64,000 nucleotides of DNA from Escherichia coli (lineage in GTDB: Bacteria; Pseudomonadota; Gammaproteobacteria; Enterobacterales; Enterobacteriaceae), in the NCBI RefSeq assembly GCF_024502345.1, contig NZ_JALDNN010000001.1; one strand, 5' to 3'. Below the pieces are notes generated by a model. That model was not told where the DNA came from, did no database searches, and worked only from the letters and a program-made list of their open reading frames with translations. The position numbers and the translations under genes were made by a program. Below are positions 62,218 to 63,657 of the stretch, piece by piece; positions within the stretch are counted from its first letter, which is position 1; the number at the start of each line of letters is the position of its first letter.

Positions 62218-63567
62218 ATGACCCTGTCTTTTATTACCCGCTGGCGCGATGAATTGCCAGCAACCTATACAGCACTTTCCCCTACGCCTTTAAATAATGC
62301 CCGGCTGATTTGGCATAATACCGAACTGGCTAACACGCTGAGTATTCCATCGTCGCTGTTTAAAAATGGCGCAGGTGTCTGGGGCGGCGAAGCCCTACTG
62401 CCTGGTATGTCACCACTGGCGCAGGTTTACAGTGGTCATCAGTTCGGCGTCTGGGCGGGCCAACTGGGTGATGGGCGCGGCATTTTACTCGGCGAACAAC
62501 TGCTTGCTGATGGCACTACAATGGACTGGCATCTGAAAGGTGCTGGCCTGACGCCTTATTCGCGAATGGGTGACGGACGGGCGGTTTTACGTTCGACGAT
62601 ACGAGAAAGTCTCGCCAGTGAGGCGATGCATTATCTGGGCATTCCGACGACCCGCGCGTTAAGTATCGTCACCAGCGATTCGCCAGTGTATCGGGAAACG
62701 GCGGAGCCAGGCGCGATGCTGATGCGTGTGGCACCAAGTCATCTACGCTTTGGTCATTTCGAACATTTTTACTACCGCCGCGAGTCGGAAAAGGTTCGTC
62801 AGTTAGCTGACTTTGCTATTCGTCATTACTGGTCACATCTTGAAGATGATGAGGACAAATACCGTCTCTGGTTTAGCGATGTTGTCGCACGTACCGCATC
62901 GTTAATTGCCCAATGGCAGACGGTCGGCTTTGCTCATGGGGTGATGAATACCGACAACATGTCGCTGCTGGGGCTGACGCTTGATTACGGGCCGTTTGGT
63001 TTTCTGGATGATTACGAACCCGGTTTTATTTGTAATCACTCGGATCATCAAGGGCGTTATAGCTTTGATAATCAACCTGCTGTCGCGTTGTGGAATTTAC
63101 AGCGTCTGGCGCAGACATTGTCACCATTTGTTGCCGTAGATGCCCTGAATGAGGCCCTGGACAGCTATCAGCAGGTTTTGTTGACGCATTATGGACAACG
63201 GATGCGGCAGAAACTGGGCTTCATCACGGAGCAAAAAGAGGATAACGCGCTACTGAATGAATTATTCAGTCTGATGGCGCGAGAGCGCAGCGATTATACC
63301 CGCACATTCCGCATGCTGAGTCTGACCGAGCAGCACAGCGCGGCGTCACCGCTTCGTGATGAGTTTATTGATCGTGCGGCATTTGATGACTGGTTTGCCC
63401 GTTATCGAGGGCGTTTGCAACAAGACGAGGTTAGCGATAGTGAGCGTCAGCAACTGATGCAAAGAGTTAACCCCGCTCTGGTATTGCGCAACTGGTTGGC
63501 GCAACGGGCGATTGAAGCGGCAGAAAAGGGTGATATGACGGAATTGCACCGCCTGCATGAGGCGTAG
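62218..63567 (+). CDS. selO: protein adenylyltransferase SelO (YdiU), truncated by an in-frame TAG; the original frame continues to 63654
   Basis: 449 codons end at TAG 63565-63567. The same frame continues RNPFSDRDDDYVSRPPDWGKRLEVSCSS* to 63654, giving 478 aa if the TAG were a sense codon. Confidence 0.85.
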
Positions 63568-63657
63568 CGAAATCCTTTCAGCGACAGAGATGATGACTAT
63601 GTCAGTCGTCCACCTGACTGGGGTAAACGGCTGGAAGTCAGCTGCTCGAGTTAAAGG

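Follow-up and report, generated by a model that had tools for sequence, protein, structure and literature searches.

The 64-kb stretch of Escherichia coli DNA analyzed here (the window) carries a selO (ydiU) gene that is interrupted by an in-frame amber codon, and this stop is very probably a recent, heritable nonsense polymorphism that arose by one T>A change at position 63566 in a small lineage of wild commensal E. coli. The TAG is not a programmed recoding signal. One disabling change relative to an intact allele in close relatives was found, together with a restricted distribution, which are the features of a young pseudogene or nonsense polymorphism. This is a well-known category, and the truncated product is already present in the databases, where it is mislabelled as a hypothetical protein.

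The selO locus and its premature stop

The window is a segment of the E. coli chromosome that contains yeaC/pncA, selD, topB, gdhA, the ast and chb operons, katE, thrS-infC-rpmI-rplT, pheST, ihfA, btuCED, nlpC, and ydiV, followed by selO and hemP. The features at the selO locus are as follows.

61442..62155, + strand: ydiV (anti-FlhDC factor), the intact upstream neighbour
62218..63567, + strand: truncated selO (ydiU) ORF, 449 codons plus the premature TAG (ORF list and translation)
63565..63567, + strand: premature amber codon TAG, codon 450 (locus-by-locus base comparison)
63568..63654, + strand: orphaned in-frame tail, 28 codons plus the native TAA (translation)
63658..63849, - strand: hemP, downstream of selO and convergent with it, with 100% identity to the reference copy

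The full selO frame, including the tail, spans 62218-63654 on the + strand, starting with the ATG at 62218 and containing the TAG in frame. The 28 sense codons after the TAG encode RNPFSDRDDDYVSRPPDWGKRLEVSCSS (63568-63651), which ends in ...EVSCSS and is followed by the native TAA at 63652-63654. Cys476, encoded by TGC, and Ser477 and Ser478 all lie in this orphaned tail, and the base that follows the premature stop is a C (TAG-C). The 449-amino-acid product terminates in ...LHRLHEA449; the SCSS> motif is encoded solely 3' of the TAG, and the [Cys/Sec]-x-x> C-terminal motif is missing from the translated protein. The first-pass annotation had placed a TAG 29 codons before the native stop, and translation confirmed its coordinates, peptide, and codon count. 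An open run of 28 codons has a chance probability of ~0.25 and is therefore uninformative alone, and the identity of the tail comes from its sequence, with 28 of 28 residues matching the C-terminus of the crystallised E. coli YdiU/SelO (PDB 6iii/6k20/9jym).

Since hemP starts 3 nt beyond the native stop of selO, without any overlap with the tail, an overlapping-gene constraint does not account for the intact tail. The Rfam search returned nothing in the selO region, and a promoter and terminator scan of the same region gave nothing above chance; on these grounds an overlapping gene or RNA that preserves the tail was rejected. Polar effects downstream were also rejected, since the next gene, hemP, is convergent and no polarity is expected.

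In the repaired protein, the match to the Pfam SelO domain (PF02696; E=2e-153) extends over residues 2-450, with the premature stop falling at the end of the domain, and the public record of the truncated ORF also carries PF02696. The residues K107, R116, D246, D256, and C272 are intact in the window translation; Asp246, Arg116, the metal-binding Asp256, and Lys107 have been reported to be essential (10.1101/692707). The locus order ydiV-selO-hemP, and more widely btuCED-nlpC-ydiV-selO-hemP-aroH, is that of the orthologous E. coli position, as seen in the gene-by-gene comparison with the reference regions. Judged by its domain, active site, synteny, and near-identity to solved structures, the gene is a bona fide selO orthologue. 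The earlier assignment of the gene to selO, and of the TAG as a stop that removes its Cys tail, thus stands on the Pfam match, the gene order, and the match to the YdiU structures.

Members of the SelO family have a C-terminal [C/U]xx> motif, which is CVTUSS> in human and Cxx> in bacteria and which is frequent but not universal in the family (PMC3281104). E. coli SelO ends in SCSS>, and the proposal that the tail Cys is the counterpart of the eukaryotic selenocysteine is borne out by this motif. Two types of recoding were considered and rejected. Selenocysteine recoding (UGA plus a SECIS element) would call for an in-frame UGA at the Sec position, whereas the stop found here is a TAG at codon 450 and Cys476 is encoded by an ordinary TGC. 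As for pyrrolysine-type recoding, E. coli is not known to have a Pyl system.

Ancestral codon, age, and distribution of the allele

Codon 450 reads TTG (Leu) in two complete genomes aligned with the window nucleotide by nucleotide and in each of the eight sister loci (L005-L012), and the change is accordingly reconstructed as a T>A transversion at 63566 that converted Leu450 from TTG to TAG. The orthologue alignment that had been proposed for finding the ancestral codon likewise gave Leu at this position. In a set of 131 enterobacterial orthologues of 478 or 480 amino acids (Escherichia, Citrobacter, Salmonella, Enterobacter, Kosakonia, and others), Leu450 is invariant (131/131), and every protein keeps the tail, ending in [EA][VI]SCSS. 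The last 11 residues are ~99% conserved among these orthologues, and the mean top-residue frequency is 0.90 in the tail versus 0.87 in residues 1-449. Because of this conservation, the tail is held to be under strong purifying selection outside the TAG lineage. Other forms of SelO were also seen. An unusual 551-amino-acid SelO protein from ENA (P0017) ends in the same way as the orthologues, and two other E. coli SelO forms of 447 amino acids (P0019 and P0020), which are 91% identical, keep the full SCSS tail and are therefore shortened elsewhere.

The rarity of the allele was assessed by searching a 71-nt query centred on the TAG against 5,420 complete RefSeq E. coli genomes, and an exact match to this TAG-containing 71-mer was found in none of them (0/5,420). 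The matches fell into two identity bands, with 5,419 at 95-99% and one record at 90-95%, and the top-listed matches had one mismatch. Among relatives outside the lineage, neither the 131 orthologues nor the 5,420 complete genomes have a stop at codon 450, and the complete genomes showed no independent recurrence at this site or close to it. The conserved in-frame stop that characterizes functional read-through is thus absent from these genomes and orthologues, and the sister strains have TTG in an otherwise identical selO DNA sequence. The best match of the window to a complete E. coli genome is just 99.2%, with draft E. coli assemblies reaching 99.9-100%, and the TAG lineage is absent from the complete-genome set. 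A Shigella origin of the window was dropped once the draft E. coli assemblies at 99.9-100% identity had been found.

When the stop was replaced by Leu and the resulting exact 478-amino-acid sequence was looked up in protein collections, an intact allele was found (P0016, WP_097748660.1), which is read on 23 contigs and is identical at all the other 477 residues. Eight loci with the intact allele share 99.77-99.93% identity with the window; for most of them the stretch in common is 11.8 kb long. The TAG lineage is set apart from these sisters by just ~5 fixed differences over 11.8 kb. In five of the six sister loci compared base by base (L005, L006, L007, L009, and L010), selO (1,437 nt) departs from the window at position 63566 alone, with flanks that are 99.9% identical over 11.8 kb, and the tail nucleotides show no differences from the intact alleles. 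Because this position alone separates selO from the intact allele in most sisters, the mutation is very recent. The first-pass annotation had suggested a recent nonsense mutation, and the ancestral TTG, the otherwise identical full-length allele, and the single selO difference in the sisters demonstrate it directly; no observation speaks against it.

The other differences on this branch are few. The window differs from all the intact-selO sister loci at 52934 (infC codon 37, IF3 V37L), 56152 (pheT codon 212, PheT A212T), 58895 (btuC, synonymous), and 63900 (hemP-aroH intergenic). In addition, a G>T change at 60781 (nlpC codon 17) converts Ser17 of the lipoprotein NlpC, the residue next to the lipobox Cys16, to Ile (LAGC|I); this change was seen solely in the window and not in L003, a second TAG-carrying locus described below, or in any sister locus. 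Most of the few differences on this young branch are protein changing, as expected before purifying selection acts.

The identical 449-amino-acid product occurs on 24 or more contigs drawn from NCBI, ENA, and Logan (44 index blocks), with accessions that include KUG68520.1, KUG68638.1, KUH07676.1, and HEA3395275.1 and the label "hypothetical protein," and the carriers are a small set of near-identical loci. Two of these loci were compared with the window: L003 (GCA_001484235.1, LLYD01) differs by one base over 4.8 kb, L004 (GCA_001484475.1, LLYL01) differs by one base over 2.8 kb, and both reproduce the TAG base. These results bear on the possibility that the TAG in the window arose from faulty sequencing or assembly, which its single-base difference from all complete genomes might suggest. 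However, the same product was called independently on all these contigs, the two fetched loci carry the base, and the assemblies come from different hosts and projects rather than from one read set; an error was therefore rejected, its probability being negligible. The first-pass annotation had named two observations that would refute its reading of the stop, close relatives that also terminate at this codon and reads with a sense codon there. Leu is what relatives beyond the lineage encode, and the TAG recurs within the lineage, so that this check favours the finding.

LLYD01 and LLYL are commensal isolates from two different healthy people, ccpm3962 having been isolated from a preschool child and ccpm5172 from a student at a university (PMC7133007). 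Wild commensal E. coli of more than one host thus carry the TAG allele in circulation. The L004 contig of ccpm5172 has a further feature at its start, where positions 1-56 match an IS1 end (window 9070-9015, reversed) and join the sequence at window position ~61224, so that the 56 nt of IS1 directly abut the nlpC-ydiV intergenic region. This arrangement points to an additional copy of IS1 a short way upstream of ydiV-selO in ccpm5172 and to IS1 activity in the lineage.

The first-pass annotation had also raised the explanation that the stop is functionally silent, with full-length SelO being made through an amber-suppressor tRNA or a high level of UAG read-through and the tail remaining under selection. 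The perfectly intact tail would fit this explanation, as would the C that follows the stop, given that UAG-C is not known as the context in which E. coli terminates most strongly. Amber suppressors have also been reported in natural coliforms in the older literature, which offers a lead only. However, at the observed divergence ~0.04 neutral substitutions are expected in the 87-nt tail and none is present, and the intact tail is thus no evidence for continued translation. No tRNA gene was found within the 64-kb window, a scan that covers the window alone and has no power for the genome. The carriers are wild commensal isolates from healthy people, and none of the other lesions in the window, described below, is an amber codon; they comprise frameshifts, a deletion, and the insertion of an IS element. 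Strong suppressors are also costly because many genes that end in TAG are extended. The stop is not conserved, and no observation requires suppression, which is accordingly considered highly unlikely relative to an ordinary nonsense polymorphism.

Other lesions and features of the window

The remaining lesions and features found in the window are the following.

4911-5954: selD (selenophosphate synthetase), intact
~8048-9866, + strand: ynjI, with an IS1 insertion and a 5-nt insertion (comparison with strain G3X16-2)
19586-20295, - strand: ydjX, with a 1-nt deletion at ~20063 relative to the reference; the frame breaks after ~78 codons
30289-30331, - strand: ES036 (CssrF) (Rfam, above the gathering score)
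40361-41165: ydjO, frameshifted at ~40747 (1-nt length difference from the reference)
48501-50370, - strand: espL1 (type III effector), with a 29-nt deletion at ~48779 relative to the reference; the C-terminal frame is shifted
54188-54312, + strand: Phe leader upstream of pheS (Rfam, above the gathering score)
58152-58310, + strand: sRNA STnc540 between ihfA and btuC (Rfam, above the gathering score)

In ynjI, an insertion of ~776 nt (9019-9794) carries the IS1 terminal repeat GGTGATGCTGCCAACTTACTGATTTA at its start and lies between copies of the direct duplication CAGTTTTGG, and a 5-nt insertion at 8172-8176, near the 5' end, shifts the frame relative to G3X16-2. The lesions in ynjI, ydjX, and espL1 are consistent with ordinary mutational decay in the lineage. 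The reference ydjO is itself annotated as a frameshifted pseudogene. The genes ynjF, ynjE, ynjD, ynjC, and ynjB (~12294-17624) are 93.6-97.3% identical to those of G3X16-2, whereas most of the neighbouring genes are ~98-100% identical and chbG is comparably low at 96.7%; the ynjF-ynjB segment looks like a recombined or divergent allele block. The presence of selD in the same window is a coincidence of map position, because E. coli SelO uses Cys rather than selenocysteine.

The truncated product and its relation to known systems

By standard knowledge, RF1 would terminate translation at the TAG and release the 449-residue protein. Any E. coli would be expected to show some near-cognate read-through of UAG, at a level of roughly 1% or less, which would yield traces of full-length SelO at most. 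The released product would keep the whole catalytic (pseudokinase) domain and lose residues 450-478, a part that consists of a conserved segment ordered in crystals (450-467) and a flexible end (468-478). In crystals of the E. coli protein, residues up to 467 are visible, and 468-478 are disordered (10.1101/692707; PMC8097203). As secondary sources, the same reports describe an intramolecular, redox-sensitive disulfide between Cys476 and Cys272 that regulates activity, and they give Ser477 and Ser478 as the self-AMPylation sites of YdiU (10.1101/692707; PMC8097203). Self-AMPylated full-length YdiU loses its UMPylation activity (10.1101/692707; PMC8097203), and YdiU(1-475), from which the last three residues have been removed, is active and is neither self-AMPylated nor inhibited (10.1101/692707). 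The loss of Cys476 together with Ser477 and Ser478 could therefore yield an enzyme without redox gating or auto-inhibition, that is, a loss of regulation. Alternatively, the loss of 450-467 may disrupt folding and give an unstable protein, with loss of function. By analogy with the 3-residue truncation studied in vitro, the product is predicted to be a tail-less SelO that is either deregulated or unstable. The allele may persist because selO is dispensable in the gut, by neutral or mildly deleterious drift.

The truncation might instead be adaptive, with removal of the tail giving a constitutively active AMPylase/UMPylase that was selected in a gut lineage. The position of the stop at the boundary of the Pfam domain (residues 2-450), the intact catalytic residues, and the finding that YdiU(1-475) is active and not switched off by self-AMPylation would fit such selection, as would the absence of further decay of selO. 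The spread of the allele to at least two hosts and many data sets indicates that it is tolerated and could also fit positive selection. However, the recency of the mutation accounts for the missing decay, and the deleted 450-467 segment is ordered and well conserved, so its deletion may destabilise the protein rather than free it. In addition, the allele occurs in none of the complete genomes and has not recurred independently at or near the site, and the other pseudogenes in the same window argue for drift. Selection for the truncation is thus considered improbable. If it were true, SelO would ignore the redox state and the ATP level, altering chaperone, glutaredoxin, and flagellar control, and the lineage would offer a naturally occurring test of what the conserved Cys/Sec tail does in a gut-adapted commensal.

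As a drifting nonsense polymorphism, the selO allele is an ordinary finding, since nonsense mutations confined to one lineage are commonplace in the dispensable stress genes of E. coli. The literature search for reported ydiU/selO pseudogenes returned nothing relevant. The allele nevertheless represents a natural, transmissible SelO allele without the conserved Cys(Sec)-Ser-Ser regulatory tail, for which near-isogenic intact sisters (WP_097748660.1) exist in wild strains, and this pair of alleles can be used to ask what role the tail plays in vivo. For annotation, the 449-amino-acid ORF (e.g., KUG68520.1) should be described as a truncated selO or a pseudogene and not as a hypothetical protein.

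The closest known system is E. coli SelO/YdiU itself (478 amino acids; PDB 6iii, 6k20, and 9jym), a protein adenylyltransferase/UMPylase with the same locus, Pfam domain, and catalytic residues. Residues 1-449 of the window product are ~97-99% identical to the crystallised proteins, and the downstream DNA encodes an identical tail, but the product itself lacks residues 450-478, which comprise Cys476, Ser477/478, and the ordered 450-467 segment. The engineered YdiU(1-475) (Yang et al., 10.1101/692707; Cell Rep 2020), which is also without Cys476, Ser477, and Ser478, is the closest functional counterpart available; the natural allele differs from it in losing 29 residues rather than 3, including the conserved segment that is ordered in crystals. 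In the eukaryotic selenoprotein O (SELENOO), the antepenultimate selenocysteine is read from UGA by means of a SECIS element, and the lost Cys476 is homologous to this residue of the [C/U]xx> motif (PMC3281104). In contrast to SELENOO, the E. coli residue is an ordinary Cys encoded by TGC, and the stop, a UAG and not a UGA, precedes the Cys position by 26 codons. Other natural amber polymorphisms and young pseudogenes of E. coli are likewise single-base nonsense changes in a non-essential stress gene of one lineage, and their downstream frames are intact because the events are recent. The rpoS amber alleles of K-12 lineages are an example of such polymorphisms. The selO stop differs from these in that it trims the regulatory C-terminus alone, which makes a partially functional product plausible.
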